Of a DNA stretch of 64,000 bases, positions 14,887 through 62,212 are shown piece after piece. Below the pieces are notes generated by a model, which was given only the letters and a program-made list of their open reading frames with translations, searched no databases and was not told the origin of the DNA. The stretch comes from a phage. Location of the stretch: assembly GCA_027337125.1 (NCBI GenBank), contig GCA_027337125.1_3057.1; one strand, written 5' to 3'. A program made the position numbers and the translations under genes. Position 1 is the stretch's first letter. Every line of letters begins with the position of its first letter.

Positions 14887-16443
14887 TTAGTAATGAATTT
14901 TAATAATATAGTTTAATGATATATTCCATGGTCTAGTTTCATAACCAATTAATCCTTCGCGATTTAACGTGCCGAACGAGTCACGAGGACCACCCATTTC
15001 AAATCCGTCATTAGTAAAGAACAAATGGTTGTCCCAGTCGGCGCTTCTACCATTGCCCAAATATCCATTGCCATTAGATGCGCCAAACGGTGCATAACCT
15101 CTGTTATTTCCATTTTCCCCCCAGGCACCAGCATGTTTATGGTATGATATTTGTTGTGCTTGAACACCACCAACATGCATTCCATCACATCCTACACCAA
15201 GTCTATCCTTCCCATAACCATCTTGTCCTCGTTGATTTAAAATATGACCGCCGGTGCCCGCTCCTCTAACAAAAAGACCTCGCATATCAGGAATCCCTGG
15301 ATTATTCCAATCCCCGCCAAATCTTGTTCCAACCGTGTTTCTATAATCAGGATATTGATCTCCTGACACGGTTCCGCCGTGGCACATAATCCAACCCGGA
15401 GGTGCTGAATCACCCGCAAACATCATAATAGTTCCAACTGGAACTCTTTCGGACGCATATCTTTCAGTGGCAACAGGTTGATCGCCATTTTTCCACATTC
15501 CGCCGCGCGACCAAATTCCGTTTGCTGTAAGATGGTCTAAATTTAAAGAACCATTAATAGTTTGTCCACCACGAGTATTAATTACATCTGCGTTCCATGC
15601 TAATGCACCAGAGCTATCACCTTCAGGGGCAATACCGGCTTGCGTCGTTAATTTAACTACTCCACGCATAGAACCAGTAGCTCCTCGACCATTTAGCGTT
15701 TCACCCGTTACTGCAACATCTCCCAAATTACTGTTAATTTCCGATTGTGTTCCTAAACGTATAACACCCTTATATTCTTGTGTTGCAACAGAATTCATAA
15801 AGGTATACGGAGAAATTGCATATCCTTCGCGGAGAGTTCCTTGACGAGTTTGCGCAACAGTAGATAATTGAACTACACCTCTCACAGATTCTGATGCAGT
15901 ATCTTCGGAAGGAGCTATTTGTGAAATTAATTTTATTGCAAGTTTTTGCGTTTTTAATGGAGTCATTGCCGTAGTATCATCAACTCCAGCTAAAGCTGCA
16001 GGTGTAGATGATATTTTAATAACCCCGTTTGATGACTCAGACGAATATCTATTTTGGAACACATCGTCAGTGTGGTATTTCAGTTTTTGCGGCGTTATTG
16101 ATGAATTATTATCTGAACCTTCTAATGTTTCTTCATTTGTTGAATAACGCGTTAAACCATATTTAGTTTCAGTAGCATTTGGATATAATAATCTTGTTGC
16201 TAATGTAGCTGGTGTAACGATTTTAGAATTATTAGTTCCATCTAAAACCTCTTGCTCTGACGCAATCATTGCTATTCCTTTAACTTCCATAGTTGCATCA
16301 GGAATACCATTTACGCCGATATTACTTATTTTTGATAATGCAGACTGCACTGTCACGACAGTGTCAGGAAAATTCGATCCAGTAGGATCGAATTTAACAT
16401 ATTTTGATTCATTTGATACGTGCTGATATGTATTGTTACTCAT
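14887..16443 (-). CDS. 12: Short tail fibre protein gp12
   Basis: 518 aa; [13 protein letters not shown]...[13 protein letters not shown] as T4 gp12. Confidence 0.95.
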
Positions 16444-34543: not shown

Positions 34544-34616
34544 TGGGAATTAGCCAAGTTGGTAAGGCATAGCACTTTGACTGCTAGATGCAAAGGTTCG
34601 AGTCCTTTATTCCCAG
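34544..34616 (+). tRNA. tRNA-Gln (anticodon UUG)
   Basis: Cloverleaf folded by hand: acceptor tgggaat/attccca, anticodon stem tagca/tgcta with loop ctTTGac, T-arm aaagg-ttcgagt-ccttt. Confidence 0.85.
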
Positions 34617-34617
34617 C

Positions 34618-34704
34618 GCGAGAATGGTCAAATTGGTAAAGGCACAGCACTTAAAATGCTGCGGAATGATTTCCTTGTGGGTTCGAGTCCCACTTCTCGT
34701 ACCA
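34618..34704 (+). tRNA. tRNA-Leu (anticodon UAA), long variable arm, encoded CCA
   Basis: Acceptor gcgagaa/ttctcgt, anticodon loop ctTAAaa, T-arm tgggttcgagtccca, 3' acca. Confidence 0.8.
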
Positions 34705-34710
34705 AAGTTT

Positions 34711-34782
<72 letters not shown>

Positions 34783-34794
34783 AAATTTAATTTA

Positions 34795-34868
34795 CTCCGT
34801 GTAGCTCAGTTTGGTAGAGCGTCTGCTTTGGGAGCAGAATGTCGCAGGTTCAAATCCTGCCACGGAGA
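34795..34868 (+). tRNA. tRNA-Pro (anticodon UGG)
   Basis: Acceptor ctccgtg/cacggag, anticodon stem tctgc/gcaga with loop ttTGGga, T-arm gcagg-ttcaaat-cctgc. Confidence 0.85.
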
Positions 34869-34870
34869 CT

Positions 34871-34957
34871 GGAGGCGTGGCAGAGTGGTTTAATGCACCG
34901 GTCTTGAAAACCGGCAGTCGCTCCGGCGACTCATAGGTTCAAATCCTATCGCCTCCG
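34871..34957 (+). tRNA. tRNA-Ser (anticodon UGA), long variable arm
   Basis: Acceptor ggaggcg/cgcctcc, anticodon stem ccggt/accgg with loop ctTGAaa, T-arm ataggttcaaatcctat. Confidence 0.85.
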
Positions 34958-34964
34958 TAATTTC

Positions 34965-35037
34965 GCTGATTTAGCTCAGTAGGTAGAGCACCTCACTTGT
35001 AATGAGGATGTCGGCGGTTCGATTCCGTCAATCAGCA
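34965..35037 (+). tRNA. tRNA-Thr (anticodon UGU)
   Basis: Acceptor gctgatt/aatcagc, anticodon stem cctca/tgagg with loop ctTGTaa, T-loop ggttcgattcc. Confidence 0.85.
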
Positions 35038-35043
35038 TATCAA

Positions 35044-35115
35044 GGCCCTGTAGCTGGAAGGTTCAAGCAAGCGACTCATAATCGCCAGATGGTGGTTCAA
35101 TTCCACCCAGGGCCA
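35044..35115 (+). tRNA. tRNA-Ile (anticodon CAU, lysidine-type) or Met-like
   Basis: Acceptor ggccctg/cagggcc, anticodon loop ctCATaa, T-arm ggtgg-ttcaatt-ccacc; T4 encodes a CAU tRNA-Ile at this position. Confidence 0.75.
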
Positions 35116-35156
35116 TATTTTGAGAACATAAATACTCTTAGAAATAGGAGATATTT

Positions 35157-35822
35157 ATGTTCCATTACATTTATAAAATAACAAATAAAATTAATAATAA
35201 AATCTATATAGGCGCTCATTCTACCGAAAATTTAGATGATGGATATATGGGTTCTGGTAAATTATTAAAAAGAGCCCAAGATAAATATGGTATAGAAAAT
35301 TTTTCTAAAGAAATATTAGAGTTCTTTGACGATAAAACCTCTATGTTTGAGTCAGAAAAGAATATTGTGACTGAAGAGTTTTTAAAGCGCCCTGATGTTT
35401 ATAATTTGAAATTAGGTGGTGAAGGTGGTTGGGACCATTTAAACACTAAAGAATATTTGGATAAAAAGAAAGAAGCTTCCTTAAAAGGAGCTGCCGCTTT
35501 TAAAACCAGATTTGAGAACGACCCAGACCTTAAAGAAAAATATCGTAAAATGGGTTCAGAAAGGTTTAAACAGCTTTGGGATAATCCTAAGTATAGAGAG
35601 AAATTTTTAAATACTAAATCTTTCTTGGGTAAGACCCATACTCCTGAAACTATTAATAAAATGAAAGAATCTCACGCCAGAAATAAACACCAACAAGGTG
35701 AAAAGAATTCCCAATTTGGCATGATGTGGATTCATTCATTAGATGAAAAAGTTTCTAAACGTATTAAGAAAACTGACCCAATTCCAGAAGGATGGTTTAA
35801 AGGTCGAAAAATGAAATTTTAA
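35157..35822 (+). CDS. segB: SegB-type GIY-YIG homing endonuclease within the tRNA cluster
   Basis: 221 aa; YIYKITNKINNKIYIGAHS (GIY-YIG), YMGSG, LGGEGG; sits between tRNA-Ile and tRNA-Arg as T4 segB does. Confidence 0.88.
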   Translation: MFHYIYKITNKINNKIYIGAHSTENLDDGYMGSGKLLKRAQDKYGIENFSKEILEFFDDKTSMFESEKNIVTEEFLKRPDVYNLKLGGEGGWDHLNTKEYLDKKKEASLKGAAAFKTRFENDPDLKEKYRKMGSERFKQLWDNPKYREKFLNTKSFLGKTHTPETINKMKESHARNKHQQGEKNSQFGMMWIHSLDEKVSKRIKKTDPIPEGWFKGRKMKF

Positions 35823-35825
35823 TTA

Positions 35826-35902
<77 letters not shown>

Positions 35903-36244
35903 GACAAGAAACCGGGTCGCTACCGGTAAGTCGTCGGACTGATGTTCCCTGAGTAAGGAATTGCGTTAATAATCTTTGTGTTTATTGATGCCCTCTTACA
36001 TCACAGCAGAAACGGCGCACCGAATTATCGATTCGAGGAAATATCTTTGCCGTAAGCCGAGTAGCGTTTTTGACGGAACGTTCGGATATGGTCGAGATGT
36101 GGCCTTTTAAAAATATTGAGTAGCGTCAACTACTTAATAACCGGGTTCGAATCCCGGCGTTTCGTACAAACACTTGCCTTAGCAGGTGGAACCCGACAAG
36201 GTTGCCGCAAGGCTTAGCCCCGACCGAAAGGTTGGGGCTTTTTA
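35903..36244 (+). ncRNA. Stable small RNA region downstream of tRNA-Arg (T4 species 1/2 RNA-like; boundaries approximate)
   Basis: ~340 nt without a convincing ORF, contains a tRNA-like T-arm (gggttcgaatcccggcg) and ends in an intrinsic terminator; T4 encodes two stable RNAs here. Confidence 0.45.
36216..36244 (+). terminator. Intrinsic terminator (agcccc...ggggct + U-run)
   Basis: Hairpin agccccgaccgaaaggttggggct followed by ttttt. Confidence 0.65.
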
Positions 36245-36376
36245 GTATCTAGGCCTTTCTGGACCTCTCTAGGCATCATTTAGTTTCTACCCTTTATAAT
36301 ATATTATCTTATCTTTTAATTGTCCCTCCCTGCCCTAGAATTCCCTAAAACTTTTTAAAAATTTTTTCACAAAACT

Positions 36377-40455: not shown

Positions 40456-41028
40456 ATGGAATGGCCCAAATTTAGAGATAACAAAATGAAAACATTTTTA
40501 ACTGGTCCTTATCTATCCCTGATGAATGCTTTTACACACCATTCTGATGCTAGAGTAGAAGAAATTTGTAATAGTGGATTTTATGTACCTGATTCGCCAC
40601 ATTTATTTAAAGAATACTGCACACTTCGACTAGATGGTGGACGTCAATCCGGTAAATCAACTGCAGTAACTAATTTTGCCGCTAATTGGTTGTATGACGG
40701 TGGAACAGTTATTGTTCTTTCTAATACTTCAGCTTACGCTAAAATTTCTGCGGGCCACATTAAAAAAGAATTTTCACGCTATTCTAATGATGATATTCGA
40801 TTCCGTTTATTTACTGATTCTGTCCGTAGTTTTGTTGGTAATAGAGGTAGCAAGTTCAGAGGTTTATCGCTTTCGCGGATTTTGTATATAATCGATGAGC
40901 CTGTTAAATCTCCTGATATGGATAAAATTTATGATATTCATATTGAAACTGTGCAACACTGCTGCAATAGTAAATGTTGCATTGGTGGTATTACTCGTCC
41001 ACAGTTTTTCGTAATCGGAATGCAATGA
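40456..41028 (+). CDS. P-loop NTPase-like protein (hypothetical)
   Basis: Walker A GGRQSGKST and Walker B-like ILYIIDE; alternative start at 40486 (MKTFLTG). Confidence 0.65.
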   Translation: MEWPKFRDNKMKTFLTGPYLSLMNAFTHHSDARVEEICNSGFYVPDSPHLFKEYCTLRLDGGRQSGKSTAVTNFAANWLYDGGTVIVLSNTSAYAKISAGHIKKEFSRYSNDDIRFRLFTDSVRSFVGNRGSKFRGLSLSRILYIIDEPVKSPDMDKIYDIHIETVQHCCNSKCCIGGITRPQFFVIGMQ

Positions 41029-41354
41029 TGACAGACACACAGCTTTTCGAATATCTTTATTTTTCGCCAAAAACTATTAAAAATAAATTGGTGAATCATT
41101 TTGAAATTTTGGCAAATAACAACGTCTTGAGCGAATTTTATCCTAAGCAGTATAAACTACAAAAAGGTGTATTCAAAGGATGTAGAGTTTTGTGTACTGC
41201 TCCTAATGCACGGTTAATGAATAAAATTCCATATTTTACAATGGAATTTATTGATGGACCTTTTAAAGGACTAATTACCCAGAGTTTAATGGCATATGAT
41301 TCTGAGCCATTTTTAATTAAAGAACAATCTTGGATAAATTTATTTTCTAATTGA
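41025..41354 (+). CDS. Hypothetical protein
   Basis: 109 aa from ATGATG overlapping the upstream TGA. Confidence 0.55.
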
Positions 41355-41361
41355 GGTTTAT

Positions 41362-41724
41362 ATGAAAGCATATCAAATTCTTGAAGGCACGCACAAAGGT
41401 ACTATTTATTTTGAAGATGGTATTCAAGCACGAATTATCGTTTCTAAAACCTTTAAAGAGGACTCTTTTGTAGACCCAGAAATTTTCTATGGTTTGCATG
41501 CCCGTGAAATTGAAATTGAGCCACAGCCTACAGTTAAAATTGAAGGTGGTCAGCACCTGAACGTTAACGTTCTGCGTCGTGAAACTCTGGAAGATGCAGT
41601 TAAGCATCCGGAAAAATATCCGCAGCTGACCATCCGTGTCTCCGGTTATGCAGTTCGCTTTAACTCTCTGACTCCGGAACAGCAGCGCGACGTTATCGCT
41701 CGTACCTTTACCGAGAGTTTGTAA
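41362..41724 (+). CDS. Autonomous glycyl-radical cofactor (GrcA/YfiD-like spare part)
   Basis: C-terminal [26 protein letters not shown] carries the glycyl-radical signature; 120 aa. Confidence 0.85.
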
Positions 41725-41945
41725 TGGCAAAGATAATTATTGAAGGTTCTAAAGATGTGCTAAATGCTTTCGCCGAATGGTTTAGTAATTCAGGCGAACA
41801 GCAATTTAATGAAGCATGGAACATGGGTGATATTAGTGGAATTTATCCTACGACAGAAATTTCTGTTCAGGGATATGGCATTCATGAACCTATTCGTTTA
41901 GTTGAATATGATTTGGGTACTGGTGAGGAAGTAAAATATGATTGA
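41724..41945 (+). CDS. Hypothetical protein
   Basis: 73-aa ORF, overlapping start/stop with neighbours. Confidence 0.55.
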   Translation: MAKIIIEGSKDVLNAFAEWFSNSGEQQFNEAWNMGDISGIYPTTEISVQGYGIHEPIRLVEYDLGTGEEVKYD

Positions 41946-42204
41946 AGATATTAAGGGTTATAAGCCACATACTGACGATAAAATCAGTAAAGTGAATGCT
42001 ATTAAAGATGCTGAAGTTCGTTTAGGACTTATCTTTGACGCTTTATATGATGAATTCTGGGAAGCACTAGATAATTGTGAAGACTGTGAATTCGCGAAGA
42101 ATTATGCTGAAAGCCTCGATCAGTTAACTATTGCTAAAACGAAACTCAAAGAAGCCAGTATGTGGGCTTGTCGTGCTGTGTTCCAACCAGAGGAAAAATA
42201 TTAA
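41938..42204 (+). CDS. Hypothetical protein at the vs.4 position (candidate Acb2-type cyclic-nucleotide sponge)
   Basis: 88-aa acidic helical protein, second ORF upstream of regB; assignment is by synteny and size only. Confidence 0.5.
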
Positions 42205-57816: not shown

Positions 57817-58290
57817 ATGTTATTGACTGGCAAATTATATAAAGAAGAAAAACAGAAATTTTATGATGCACAAAACGGTAAATGCTTAATTTGCCAACGA
57901 GAATTAAATCCTGATGTTCAAGCTAATCACCTTGACCATGACCATGAATTAAATGGACCGAAAGCTGGAAAGGTACGTGGGTTGCTTTGTAATCTCTGTA
58001 ATGCGGCAGAAGGTCAAATGAAACATAAATTTAATCGTTCTGGCTTAAAAGGACAAGGCGTTGATTATCTTGAATGGTTAGAAAATTTACTTACTTATTT
58101 AAAATCCGATTACACCCAAAATAATATTCACCCTAACTTTGTTGGAGATAAATCAAAGGAATTTTCTCGTTTAGGAAAAGAGGAAATGATGGCCGAGATG
58201 CTTCAAAGAGGATTTGAATATAATGAATCTGACACCAAAACACAGTTAATAGCTTCATTTAAGAAGCAGCTTAGAAAGAGTTTAAAATGA
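57817..58290 (+). CDS. 49: Endonuclease VII (Holliday junction resolvase) gp49
   Basis: 157 aa; MLLTGKLYKEEKQKFYDAQNGKCLICQRELNPDVQANHLDHDHELNGPKAG...; zinc-binding Cys plus H-N-H-like core. Confidence 0.95.
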   Translation: MLLTGKLYKEEKQKFYDAQNGKCLICQRELNPDVQANHLDHDHELNGPKAGKVRGLLCNLCNAAEGQMKHKFNRSGLKGQGVDYLEWLENLLTYLKSDYTQNNIHPNFVGDKSKEFSRLGKEEMMAEMLQRGFEYNESDTKTQLIASFKKQLRKSLK

Positions 58291-59108
58291 ATGTAGTATA
58301 TAAACTATCATTTGTTAATAGAATTAATGCTAAAACCCCGCCATATTATTACATTGGAAGTAAAACTAATTGCACTTTTGATGGAACGAATATTATTGAT
58401 AAAAATGGTAAATTTTATTATTCGTCTTCGTCATCTTCTGAATTTCAAAACGCTCTATTGAAAGAAACGCCGAAAGTTGAAATATTATATTTTCAATTAG
58501 TCGGAGATGAACAAATAACTAGCATTGAAGCTGAATTTCAAAAGAATGTAGAAAAAGATGTATGGAATAAAGAGTATTTTAATTTAGCATATGCTGATGG
58601 CCAATTTACGACATATGGTATTTCTCCTTCTAAAGAAACTAGAGAAAAGCAATCAATAACCATGATTAAAAGAAATCGTAATAAAGGCAAAAATCATGGA
58701 TTTTATGGAAAGCATCATACTAATTTAGCCAGAAAGAAAATATCAGAAGCTTCTAAAAAATACTGGAAAGAAAATCCACATCGTGGATTTTCGCATACAA
58801 AGGAAGCTAAAATTAAAATTGGAATTTCATCTTCTATCAGGCATAAAGGAAGTGGAAATCCGATGTATGGTGTAAAACCTTGGAAAACTCCGAGAGCAAT
58901 TAAATCTGGTACTTGTATATTATGGTTAAAATACGCAGAAATTTTATATGATTATTTAGGTCCAGATTTTAAAAGTAAATCATCTGTTTTTGTGGATTTA
59001 AACTTACCGAAATTTAGAATTGATAATTTCATCAAAAGGTTTAAAATGGGTTGGAACCCATATTTAGACGAAGAATTTCAAAAGGATAAATTAGAATTAT
59101 GTCTTTAG
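58287..59108 (+). CDS. GIY-YIG-type homing endonuclease (free-standing) between gene 49 and nrdD
   Basis: VYKLSFVNRINAKTPPYYYIGSK (GIY-YIG-like) plus C-terminal repeated basic modules (KGKNHGFYGKHHT, KGSGNPMYGVKPW); ATGA overlap with gene 49 and 10-nt overlap with nrdD. Confidence 0.75.
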   Translation: MNVVYKLSFVNRINAKTPPYYYIGSKTNCTFDGTNIIDKNGKFYYSSSSSSEFQNALLKETPKVEILYFQLVGDEQITSIEAEFQKNVEKDVWNKEYFNLAYADGQFTTYGISPSKETREKQSITMIKRNRNKGKNHGFYGKHHTNLARKKISEASKKYWKENPHRGFSHTKEAKIKIGISSSIRHKGSGNPMYGVKPWKTPRAIKSGTCILWLKYAEILYDYLGPDFKSKSSVFVDLNLPKFRIDNFIKRFKMGWNPYLDEEFQKDKLELCL

Positions 59109-60916
59109 AGAAAGATGTTTTAAATTTTATTTCAAATAAAGATAAAGAATTAAATACCGAAAATGCCAACAAAGATTCTCGTGTCTTTCCAACAAAAAGA
59201 GATTTAATGGCCGGTATTGTTTCTAAACATATCGCTTGTAGTATTCTTCCAAGCCATATTGTAAATGCTCATAATGCCGGGTTAATTCATTTTCATGATT
59301 TAGATTACAGTATATCATTGCCTTTTACTAATTGTTGTTTAGTAGATTTAAAAGGAATGCTTGAGAACGGATTTAAGCTTGGTAATGCACAGATTGAAAC
59401 TCCTAAATCAATCGGTGTTGCTACTGCAATTATGGCACAAATTACTGCACAGGTTGCTTCCCATCAATACGGCGGAACGACTTTTGCTAATGTAGATAAA
59501 GTACTTTCTCCTTATGTTAAACGCACCTATGCAAAACATATTGAGGATGCAGAAAAATGGCAAATCGCTGATGCGTTAAATTATGCTCAATCTAAAACAG
59601 AAAAAGACGTATACGATGCATTCCAAGCTTATGAATATGAAGTAAATACTCTCTTTAGTTCAAACGGACAAACGCCTTTTGTAACAATTACATTTGGTAC
59701 GGGAACTGACTGGACTGAACGAATGATTCAGAAAGCAATTCTGAAAAATCGTATTAAAGGTCTTGGTCGTGATGGGATAACTCCTATTTTCCCTAAGCTT
59801 GTTATGTTTGTTGAAGAAGGTGTTAATCTTTATAAAGACGATCCGAACTATGATATTAAGCAGCTTGCTTTAGAGTGTGCAAGCAAAAGGATGTATCCTG
59901 ATATTATTTCAGCTAAGAACAATAAAGCTATCACTGGTTCATCTGTTCCTGTTTCTCCAATGGGTTGTCGTAGTTTCTTGAGCATATGGAAAGATTCGAC
60001 TGGCAATGAAATTCTTGATGGACGTAATAATCTCGGTGTTGTAACACTGAATCTTCCTCGTATTGCGTTAGATTCTTATATTGGAACACAGTTCAATGAA
60101 CAGAAATTTACTGAATTATTCAATGAACGAATGGATTTGTGTTTTGAAGCTTTGATGTGTAGAATTAGTTCCTTAAAAGGAGTTAAAGCGACTGTTGCTC
60201 CTATTCTTTACCAAGAAGGCGCATTCGGGGTTCGTCTTAAACCTGATGACGACATAATTGAGTTATTTAAAAACGGTAGAAGTTCAGTGTCTTTAGGATA
60301 CATTGGTATTCACGAATTGAATATTCTTGTCGGTCGTGATATTGGACGAGAAATTTTAACTAAAATGAATGCTCATCTTAAACAGTGGACTGAAAGAACC
60401 GGATTTGCTTTTAGTTTATATTCGACTCCTGCTGAAAACCTTTGTTATCGCTTCTGTAAACTTGATACAGAGAAATATGGAAGTGTAAAAGATGTTACCG
60501 ATAAAGGCTGGTACACTAACAGTTTCCATGTTTCAGTAGAAGAAAATATTACTCCGTTTGAAAAGATTTCTCGTGAAGCTCCATATCATTTCATTGCGAC
60601 AGGTGGTCACATTTCTTATGTTGAACTTCCTGATATGAAAAATAACTTAAAAGGTCTTGAGGCCGTGTGGGATTATGCCGCACAACATTTAGATTATTTT
60701 GGTGTTAATATGCCAGTAGATAAATGTTTTACATGTGGAAGTACCCATGAAATGACTCCTACTGAAAACGGATTTGTTTGTTCTATTTGCGGAGAAACTG
60801 ATCCTAAAAAGATGAACACAATAAGAAGAACGTGTGGTTATTTGGGAAATCCGAACGAACGCGGATTTAATCTCGGTAAAAATAAAGAAATCATGCATAG
60901 GGTTAAACACCAATGA
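59099..60916 (+). CDS. nrdD: Anaerobic ribonucleoside-triphosphate reductase NrdD (glycyl radical enzyme)
   Basis: 605 aa uninterrupted; C-terminal zinc ribbon CFTCGS...CSICGE and glycyl radical motif RRTCGYLG. Confidence 0.95.
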   Translation: MSLEKDVLNFISNKDKELNTENANKDSRVFPTKRDLMAGIVSKHIACSILPSHIVNAHNAGLIHFHDLDYSISLPFTNCCLVDLKGMLENGFKLGNAQIETPKSIGVATAIMAQITAQVASHQYGGTTFANVDKVLSPYVKRTYAKHIEDAEKWQIADALNYAQSKTEKDVYDAFQAYEYEVNTLFSSNGQTPFVTITFGTGTDWTERMIQKAILKNRIKGLGRDGITPIFPKLVMFVEEGVNLYKDDPNYDIKQLALECASKRMYPDIISAKNNKAITGSSVPVSPMGCRSFLSIWKDSTGNEILDGRNNLGVVTLNLPRIALDSYIGTQFNEQKFTELFNERMDLCFEALMCRISSLKGVKATVAPILYQEGAFGVRLKPDDDIIELFKNGRSSVSLGYIGIHELNILVGRDIGREILTKMNAHLKQWTERTGFAFSLYSTPAENLCYRFCKLDTEKYGSVKDVTDKGWYTNSFHVSVEENITPFEKISREAPYHFIATGGHISYVELPDMKNNLKGLEAVWDYAAQHLDYFGVNMPVDKCFTCGSTHEMTPTENGFVCSICGETDPKKMNTIRRTCGYLGNPNERGFNLGKNKEIMHRVKHQ

Positions 60917-61752
60917 ATTATGATAGATTTTATCCTTGCGATTTTGTGAATGATAAATTATCTTTAATATTTGAAGAAAATAATGATTTACTATTGTCAT
61001 ATGTTGATTTGATAACAAAAAATTATAATAATCCTAAAATAAAAGGAAAAACGGAAGCACATCACGTGCTTCCCAAATCTATATTTCCTGAATATAAAAC
61101 AGATAAATGGAATATTGTTAATTTGTCATATTATGACCACGCGTTAGCTCATTACTATTTAGCTAAAACAAGTAATAGTAAAATGTGTTATGCCTTTCAT
61201 AGAATGATAAACTCGAATACCGATAGATTTAATACAAATGAATTGGATGAAATTCTTAAATTGTATTCCAGCGAAAAGGAATTATTTCACCGCTCTATGT
61301 CAAAATTATCGAAAAATATATGGAAGGATGACGATTTTAGAAAAAGACATAGAGAACTAACTAAGTTAGCAATGCAAAAACCTGAAGTTAGAAATAAAAC
61401 TTTATTAAATTTGTCAAATGCAATGAAAACTGATGAAGTTAGAAATAAAATTTCCAGGCTAACTAAGTTAGCAATGCAAAAACCTGAAGTAAAAGAAAAA
61501 CATAGAAATTCATTGAAGTTGGCGTATGCAAATCCTGAGGTTATGAAAAGGAAACATCAGCGTCTTCGAGAAAAATATACTCTTAATTTATTTGGCGCAT
61601 ATAAAGATGGTGTTCTTTTAAAAACATTTAATTATATACCAGACGCAGCAAAATATTTTAATATTTCTAGCAAAGGAAATATTTTAAAATGTTTAAATGG
61701 CGAACGTAAAAGTGTTGAAGGCTATAATTGGAAATATATAAATGAATTATGA
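60913..61752 (+). CDS. mobC: Mob-family HNH homing endonuclease between nrdD and nrdG
   Basis: HNH core TEAHHVLPKS...NLSYYDHALAHYYL; N-terminus MNYDRFYPCDFVND copies the nrdG start; internal 32-bp perfect direct repeat. Confidence 0.85.
   Translation: MNYDRFYPCDFVNDKLSLIFEENNDLLLSYVDLITKNYNNPKIKGKTEAHHVLPKSIFPEYKTDKWNIVNLSYYDHALAHYYLAKTSNSKMCYAFHRMINSNTDRFNTNELDEILKLYSSEKELFHRSMSKLSKNIWKDDDFRKRHRELTKLAMQKPEVRNKTLLNLSNAMKTDEVRNKISRLTKLAMQKPEVKEKHRNSLKLAYANPEVMKRKHQRLREKYTLNLFGAYKDGVLLKTFNYIPDAAKYFNISSKGNILKCLNGERKSVEGYNWKYINEL
61357..61490 (+). repeat. Perfect 32-bp direct repeat (two copies, 102 bp apart, in frame) inside mobC
   Basis: ctaactaagttagcaatgcaaaaacctgaagt at 61357-61388 and 61459-61490, each encoding LTKLAMQKPEV. 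Confidence 0.85.
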
Positions 61753-62212
61753 CAGAATATACCCGTGCTGCTTCGTGAATGGCCCTGGATGCAGGACCGT
61801 TCTTTTCGTTACAGGTTGTTTGCATAAATGTGAAGGGTGTTATAATAAATCAACATGGAATGCTAGAAATGGTATTCCATTCACTGGTGAAACACTAGAA
61901 CAATTGATTGAATGTTTGAATAATGATTATATAGAAGGATTAACTATAACCGGAGGTGACCCTCTTTATCCTGATAACAGAGACGTGATTCACTCTGTGG
62001 TTCAAACTATTAAAAATCTTTATCCCAATAAAAGCATTTGGTTGTGGACAGGATATAAGTTTGAAGATATTAAACAACTAGAAATGCTTAAATATGTTGA
62101 TGTTATTATTGATGGGAAGTATGAGAAAAATCTTCCGACCAAAAAGCTGTGGCGAGGTTCAGATAATCAGCGACTTTGGTCAAATACCGATGGGGTGTGG
62201 AAACATGATTAA
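61742..62212 (+). CDS. nrdG: Anaerobic ribonucleotide reductase activating protein NrdG (radical SAM)
   Basis: MNYDRIYPCCFVNGPGCRTVLFVTGCLHKCEGCYNKSTW: NrdG N-terminal signature and CxxxCxxC cluster. Confidence 0.93.
   Translation: MNYDRIYPCCFVNGPGCRTVLFVTGCLHKCEGCYNKSTWNARNGIPFTGETLEQLIECLNNDYIEGLTITGGDPLYPDNRDVIHSVVQTIKNLYPNKSIWLWTGYKFEDIKQLEMLKYVDVIIDGKYEKNLPTKKLWRGSDNQRLWSNTDGVWKHD

Follow-up and report, generated by a model that had tools for sequence, protein, structure and literature searches.

The 120-residue open reading frame (ORF) at positions 41362 to 41724 (+ strand) of the window, by which we mean the whole 64,000-nucleotide stretch of phage DNA that was analysed, is identified by sequence identity and gene order as the ortholog of T4 vs.6 (Y06I). 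In the explanation that we consider likely as a whole, the gene encodes a glycyl-radical spare part for the pyruvate formate-lyase (PFL) of the host, and its 3' ~170 nt have been overwritten by host grcA through homologous recombination. The sequence identity, the domain structure and the mosaicism are direct observations. What is central to the finding was known before, both from T4 vs.6/Y06I and from the GrcA annotation in many of the more than 1,500 matching phage records, and it brings no new function; the host-matched mosaic alone may not have been reported before.

In the list of ORFs the gene opens with ATG and closes with TAA. A Shine-Dalgarno sequence read directly from the DNA, GAGG (41353 to 41356, + strand), stands 5 nt ahead of the start codon. 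The stop codon shares bases with the ATG of the downstream vs.5-like gene (TAATG). A scan for promoters and terminators around the gene gave 10 promoter-like sites versus 10.9 expected, and no promoter is assigned here. The 127-residue antisense ORF at 41347 to 41730 (- strand) was set aside as a shadow ORF without support.

The protein has the same length as the product of T4 vs.6 (NC_000866 63557-63919; NP_049730) and shares 119 of its 120 residues; the sole change is at residue 73, which is Arg here, as in E. coli GrcA, and His in T4 Y06I. At the nucleotide level the two genes are 97% identical (~3% synonymous differences). The 2.2 kb around the gene are 96-97.5% identical to many Tequatrovirus (T4-like) genomes, and the gene order is that of phages IME340 and T4: denV/internal-protein genes, vs.8, vs.7, the vs.6 ortholog, vs.5, vs.4, vs.3, regB, vs.1, vs and tk. 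As in T4, the gene sits between vs.7 and vs.5/vs.4/regB. Both Acb2 (vs.4) and RegB were identified downstream of it in the window, and this position upstream of vs.5, vs.4 (Acb2) and regB, together with the near-identity to T4 vs.6, places the gene in the T4 vs.6 orthologous group of the Straboviridae. The window is a Tequatrovirus. We equate vs.6 with the ~14 kDa Y06I of Wagner et al. 2001 because the grcA radical-domain block matches T4 at a single place, within vs.6. RefSeq labels T4 vs.6 as 'autonomous glycyl radical cofactor GrcA'.

Further observations concern the immediate neighbors. Upstream, the longest vs.8-like ORF (190 aa, 40456-41028, + strand) and the longest vs.7-like ORF (40974-41354, + strand) overlap by ~55 nt; the start of vs.7 differs between records (54 aa in IME340, 109 aa in T4), and the start of the vs.7-like gene is uncertain here. 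Two genes downstream of the vs.6 ortholog, the 88-residue ORF at 41938-42204 (+ strand) matches the Acb2/Tad1-hairpin model (PF24729, E 1.2e-19); it corresponds to T4 vs.4, the anti-CBASS cyclic-nucleotide sponge, and is called 'anti-CBASS protein 2' in one related phage record.

The preliminary description of this DNA had taken the 120-residue protein for a GrcA/YfiD-like autonomous cofactor ending in a GrcA-type glycyl-radical signature, and both profile searches and an alignment with E. coli GrcA and T4 Y06I bear this out. The Pfam model Gly_radical (PF01228) matches with 66.8 bits (E 2.8e-18; cut-off 22.2 bits). Among 33 PDB matches found with phmmer, the NMR structure of GrcA comes first (6owr, E 8.6e-42, residues 22-120 aligned) and PFL next (E 5e-26). 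Residues 61-120 and E. coli GrcA 68-127 have the same sequence (100% identity), and dN is 0 in the C-half in comparisons with both the E. coli and the Mosigvirus homologs. The context of the radical glycine is conserved: Gly95 within RVSGYAV (GGT codon at 41644 to 41646, + strand), the predicted radical glycine, is the counterpart in the alignment of GrcA G102 and of PFL G734, which is the PFL radical site (PMC8683613).

The features that define the GrcA/YfiD family (TIGR04365, IPR011140) are found in the protein as follows: (i) It is a stand-alone product of 120 residues, with its own ribosome-binding site and stop codon and no glycyl-radical-enzyme barrel. (ii) It has the RVSGYAV loop, and its Gly_radical match lies above the gathering score. 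(iii) Its N-half is homologous to the disordered, PFL-recognition half of GrcA; a profile of 13 phage N-halves, compared by hhalign with one of 67 host GrcA N-halves, gave a probability of 94.9% (E 4.4e-8, 59 columns, 27% identity). The GrcA equivalog model itself (NCBIfam TIGR04365, spare_glycyl) aligns residues 20-120 with positions 25-126 of its 126 at 153.3 bits (E 3.7e-45), short of the equivalog cut-off of 170 bits because the N-half is diverged (27% identity to bacterial GrcA). The models for the short GrcA2/GrcA3 proteins (NF008341 and NF038360; E 6.8e-27 and 5.6e-31) also gave scores below their family cut-offs; these proteins of ~80 aa have the radical domain in common with the vs.6 ortholog but, unlike it, no N-terminal half. 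The protein is predicted to function like GrcA/YfiD, all testable defining features being present except the equivalog score.

Like E. coli GrcA (YfiD, PDB 6OWR), the phage protein is a stand-alone product of ~14 kDa with the RVSGYAV loop, the same 60 C-terminal residues and an N-half that is homologous over its whole length. The differences from GrcA lie in this N-half, which shares only 27% identity with its counterpart, is shorter by 7 residues and has the AT-rich composition of phage DNA. The C-terminal domain of PflB (693-759) shares 49 of 63 residues (78%) with it, including the entire Gly loop, but the phage radical domain, unlike that of PflB, is not joined to a 10-stranded barrel.

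Homologs are present in ~1,540 of 50,697 phage records, T5-like Demerecviridae among them, and many carry the annotation GrcA or pyruvate formate-lyase. GrcA-like genes were seen in the T5-like phage AKFV33 (L089 320-688), in RB49 (L090 269-685) and in Aeromonas phage 44RR (L091 317-685); in the C-half these genes reach only 70-80% identity with any of the host grcA sequences in our panel. The GrcA-like genes of T5-like Demerecviridae and of distant T4-like phages have a phage-type N-terminus (MKAYQ.L...) in common, which suggests that one phage-borne grcA lineage has been exchanged between unrelated phage families.

The idea that such a protein could rescue host PFL, also put forward in the preliminary description, is supported by published biochemistry on T4 Y06I. 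As related in PMC8683613, T4 Y06I and E. coli YfiD both acquire a glycyl radical from the PFL activase, and O2-cleaved PFL regains activity with them (Wagner et al. 2001); YfiD and Y06I are described there as the only two validated spare-part proteins. YfiD 61-127, which carries the radical, adopts the fold of PFL 693-759, and YfiD 1-60 is disordered and dispensable for catalysis and aids binding to cleaved PFL and installation of the radical (PMC8683613). Nolan et al. 2006 reported a Gly_radical match for vs.6 and its presence in all six of the six T4-like genomes that they compared (PMC1524935). With Y06I one residue apart from the window protein, activation by PflA and rescue of cleaved PFL may be expected of the latter by analogy.

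In the proposed mechanism, oxygen would cut host PFL at its radical glycine, G734, and the phage protein would dock on the cleaved enzyme, its C-domain (61-120) replacing the lost PFL segment 693-759. Host PflA, a radical SAM enzyme, would then put the radical on Gly95, and PFL turnover (pyruvate + CoA -> acetyl-CoA + formate) would come back. Activation would have to use host PflA because the phage is without a PFL-type activase, which agrees with the reported activation by PFL-AE. What the phage gains might be that fermentative ATP/acetyl-CoA and the supply of formate are kept up when the infected cell is exposed to a little oxygen. The literature searched yielded no in vivo phenotype for vs.6. 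The host's own GrcA already has the identical C-domain, and the added value of the phage copy might possibly lie in supply after host gene shut-off. The phage protein may also differ quantitatively from YfiD, since the N-half matters for binding of cleaved PFL and is here so different in sequence.

The strong divergence and shortening of the half that in YfiD recognizes cleaved PFL, as well as the presence of a host GrcA with the same C-domain, could also be taken to mean that the protein is a decoy or modulator, which sequesters PflA or occupies cleaved PFL and thereby damps or redirects host fermentation or radical-SAM capacity (e.g., freeing SAM/flavodoxin for NrdG). However, T4 Y06I is reported, in the account given by PMC8683613, to reconstitute PFL activity and not to inhibit it, and a pure decoy would not need a radical glycine together with an entire catalytic domain identical to that of the host (dN = 0). 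We therefore judge a decoy to be improbable and retain the reading of the protein as a spare part for PFL.

At the DNA level the gene is a mosaic. Its 5' half (codons 1-59; 41362 to 41538, + strand) is phage-type, with a GC content of 0.35 and ~50% nt identity to E. coli grcA in a codon alignment. Codons 61-117 (41542 to 41712, + strand; GC 0.51) form a host-derived block that corresponds approximately to GrcA residues 68-124, in the structured glycyl-radical domain that mimics PFL 693-759; the start of the block, at GrcA residue 68, lies a few residues inside the structured half of YfiD (61-127). Over this block 169 of 171 nt (98.8%) are identical to E. coli grcA, and identity drops again in the last three codons, whereas K. 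pneumoniae and Salmonella grcA differ from it at 19 and 30 of the 171 positions, respectively. In a blastn comparison with 5,426 complete E. coli genomes, only 41540-41724 gave a match (97.3%), in all of the genomes and always to grcA, and within positions 25001-50000 of the window no segment matches any of the E. coli genomes better than the grcA block does. No match to the 5' 199 nt of E. coli grcA was found in the 50,697 phage records; the 3' 185 nt match 1,537 of these records, 629 of them at 95-99%.

The block is also distinct in composition (GC z = 3.3), only 0.3% of the 170-nt segments in the 64 kb being equally GC-rich. The highest GC peak of the window is a cluster of eight tRNA genes at 34544-35902 (+ strand; Gln, Leu, Gly, Pro, Ser, Thr, Met and Arg, as in T4), and further GC peaks lie at 127-296, 15248-15417 and 36123-36292.

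The phage N-half aligns over its full length to bacterial GrcA N-halves, and the gene therefore appears to descend from an old grcA homolog of full length that had adapted to an AT-rich composition and later had its 3' part exchanged. The donor was grcA rather than pflB, which was considered and rejected because its DNA is ~80% identical to the block, compared with 98.8% for grcA. Differences from E. coli within the block are mostly G->A and C->T, a bias that would be expected for drift towards the AT-rich composition of the phage. No earlier report of the mosaic or of gene conversion was found in the searchable literature; the host-identical C-terminus could have been noted in PMC150520, a review of the T4 genome, or in PMC6754787, on YfiD by NMR.

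Comparison with other T4-like phages indicates that the block matches the host genus. Differences were counted over the 171-nt block (codons 61-117) with a limited panel of hosts and one lineage of Klebsiella phages. In these counts the window and T4, which have the mosaic DNA in common, each differ from E. coli grcA at 2 positions, and Mosigvirus ST0 differs at 3. E. coli grcA itself is 3 differences away from that of another Escherichia species, 12 from Citrobacter, 20 from K. pneumoniae and 28 from Salmonella. The blocks of the Klebsiella phages Kp122 and KP01 (Jiaodavirus) differ at 7 and 10 positions, respectively, from K. pneumoniae grcA (taken from a chromosome mis-filed among plasmids), versus 20 and 21 from E. 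coli grcA and likewise 20 and 21 from the window. The Jiaodavirus block encodes the Klebsiella-type residues LLDAVE, and the 5' half of the gene is still phage-type, with 73% nt identity to the window and a GC content of 0.36. A neighbor-joining tree of the block places Jiaodavirus next to K. pneumoniae with 83% bootstrap support, and Escherichia together with Tequatrovirus and Mosigvirus; under stricter resampling the separation was kept in 63-74%. The tracts also end at different places on the 3' side, near codon 112 in Jiaodavirus and near codon 117 in Tequatrovirus. Host-matching is not claimed for Slopekvirus, Pseudotevenvirus, Karamvirus, RB49, 44RR and the T5-like phages, which are 70-84% identical to any host grcA in the panel. 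The two halves of the Karamvirus gene are equally diverged and intermediate in GC (0.43), and this allele looks like an unconverted one.

Synonymous divergence gives an indication of the age of the block. When the window is compared with Mosigvirus, dS values are 0.18 for the C-block, 0.6-0.8 for the 5' half of vs.6 and 1.1-3.7 for the flanking genes, and the contrast between the C-block and the 5' half in synonymous changes is significant (Fisher p = 0.0015). It follows that the block arose after Tequatrovirus and Mosigvirus had separated. The 5' half, for its part, also has a lower dS than the neighboring genes.

Because the block is short (171 nt), the counts small and the bootstrap values moderate (83% for K. 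pneumoniae with Jiaodavirus; strict separation in 63-74% of resamples), we also weighed an explanation without recent recombination, in which the host-like 3' half is a single old acquisition held under nucleotide-level constraint, or else an artefact of assembly or contamination. Several observations speak against it. Among the host orthologs, synonymous positions are free to change (20/171 differences for E. coli and K. pneumoniae, 28/171 for E. coli and Salmonella), so there is no nucleotide-level constraint on the block; 629 independent phage records show the pattern, the T4 reference being one of them; each phage block fits its own host genus; and dS between Tequatrovirus and Mosigvirus is far lower in the block than in the 5' half and the flanks. 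We regard this explanation as quite unlikely.

The simplest reading is that of repeated patch recombination from host to phage, with the conserved ends of the radical domain as anchors. It is known that T4 recombines with homologous DNA in the host cell, as in marker rescue from plasmids. On balance, we favor the view that phage grcA is repeatedly converted and so stays matched to its host, the 3' ~170 nt having been independently overwritten by grcA of the host genus in at least two, probably three, lineages of Tevenvirinae (Tequatrovirus and Mosigvirus on Escherichia, Jiaodavirus on Klebsiella), with the disordered N-half retained. The patches may have been fixed because an exact fit to host PFL/PflA matters, or the conversion may alternatively have been neutral.

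The preliminary description also noted NrdD and its activase NrdG 18 kb downstream and credited the phage with a full anaerobic toolkit. Both genes are indeed in the window. The class III ribonucleotide reductase gene nrdD (59099 to 60916, + strand) has no intron and encodes 605 residues with Gly580 in RRTCGYLG, a motif with a single occurrence in the window (60824-60846; chance would give 0), and its product scores 896 bits with NCBIfam NF006732 (cut-off 657). The product of nrdG (61742 to 62212, + strand) scores 197 bits with NCBIfam TIGR02491 (cut-off 126). From the vs.6 ortholog it is 17.4 kb to the start of nrdD and 20 kb to nrdG, so the distance given was approximately right. The toolkit, however, is not self-contained, as a PFL-type activase is missing from it: NrdG reaches only 50 bits with the PflA family model TIGR02493, the cut-off of which is 232.

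A further suggestion was that the protein might be a spare part for the phage's own NrdD, which oxygen would cleave at Gly580; the protein would take the place of the lost C-terminus and be re-radicalised by NrdG. The presence of nrdD and nrdG in the same window fits this idea, as do the 25-residue tail that follows the radical glycine in both proteins, the speculation that spare parts exist for other glycyl radical enzymes (PMC8683613) and the role in nucleotide metabolism that was guessed for vs.6 (PMC1524935). The C-terminus of NrdD (T4 Gly580) also resembles the phage protein in its radical chemistry and its liability to oxygen cleavage. In sequence, however, the two have no significant similarity: BLASTP of the vs.6 ortholog against the NrdD of the window gave E 2.4 with the Gly loops unaligned, and the 33 PDB matches include no NrdD chain even though PDB has structures of T4 NrdD. 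The Gly loop is of the PFL type, RVSGYAV, and not an RxxCGY loop such as RRTCGYLG. The vs.6 ortholog has no cysteine and thus no Zn-binding element, whereas the NrdD of the window has CFTC...CSIC, a CxxC...CxxC Zn site of the Zn-ribbon, before RRTCGYLG. NrdD has an activase of its own in NrdG, and the C-domain of the vs.6 ortholog is, as DNA, a copy of host grcA, a gene whose product fits PFL (78% identity). The PFL-type loop, the BLASTP result and the absence of cysteine exclude an NrdD-type glycyl-radical domain, and we consider rescue of phage NrdD by this protein to be very improbable.

The tie between the vs.6 ortholog and nrdD/nrdG is probably metabolic, through formate, rather than one of direct repair. 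Formate is the reductant of class III ribonucleotide reductases, the T4 NrdD subtype included (PMC4493059), and formate from rescued PFL would feed phage NrdD in this capacity.

Two mobile-endonuclease-like genes flank nrdD. Between nrdD and nrdG, the 279-residue ORF at 60913-61752 (+ strand) has weak NUMOD-like matches only and is probably a free-standing homing endonuclease. It begins MNYDRFYPCDFVN, a near-copy of the start of NrdG, MNYDRIYPCCFVN (61742-61780; ~31/40 nt identical), which suggests that the insertion duplicated the nrdG 5' end and took over its start signals. The second such gene, a 273-residue ORF at 58287-59108 (+ strand) between the endonuclease VII gene (57817-58290) and nrdD, matches NUMOD3 (E 6.5e-7) and, weakly, a group-I-intron-endonuclease model.

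With regard to the biology of these phages, the idea of NrdD repair can be dropped on sequence grounds, and a testable metabolic link, from PFL repair to formate to the reductant of NrdD, takes its place. The mosaic indicates that a strictly lytic phage that destroys host DNA nevertheless repeatedly recombines with a host gene, and it sets apart the half of the spare part that apparently needs to fit the host from the half customised by the phage. If true, the repeated conversion would be a clear natural example of patch recombination from a host to a lytic phage.
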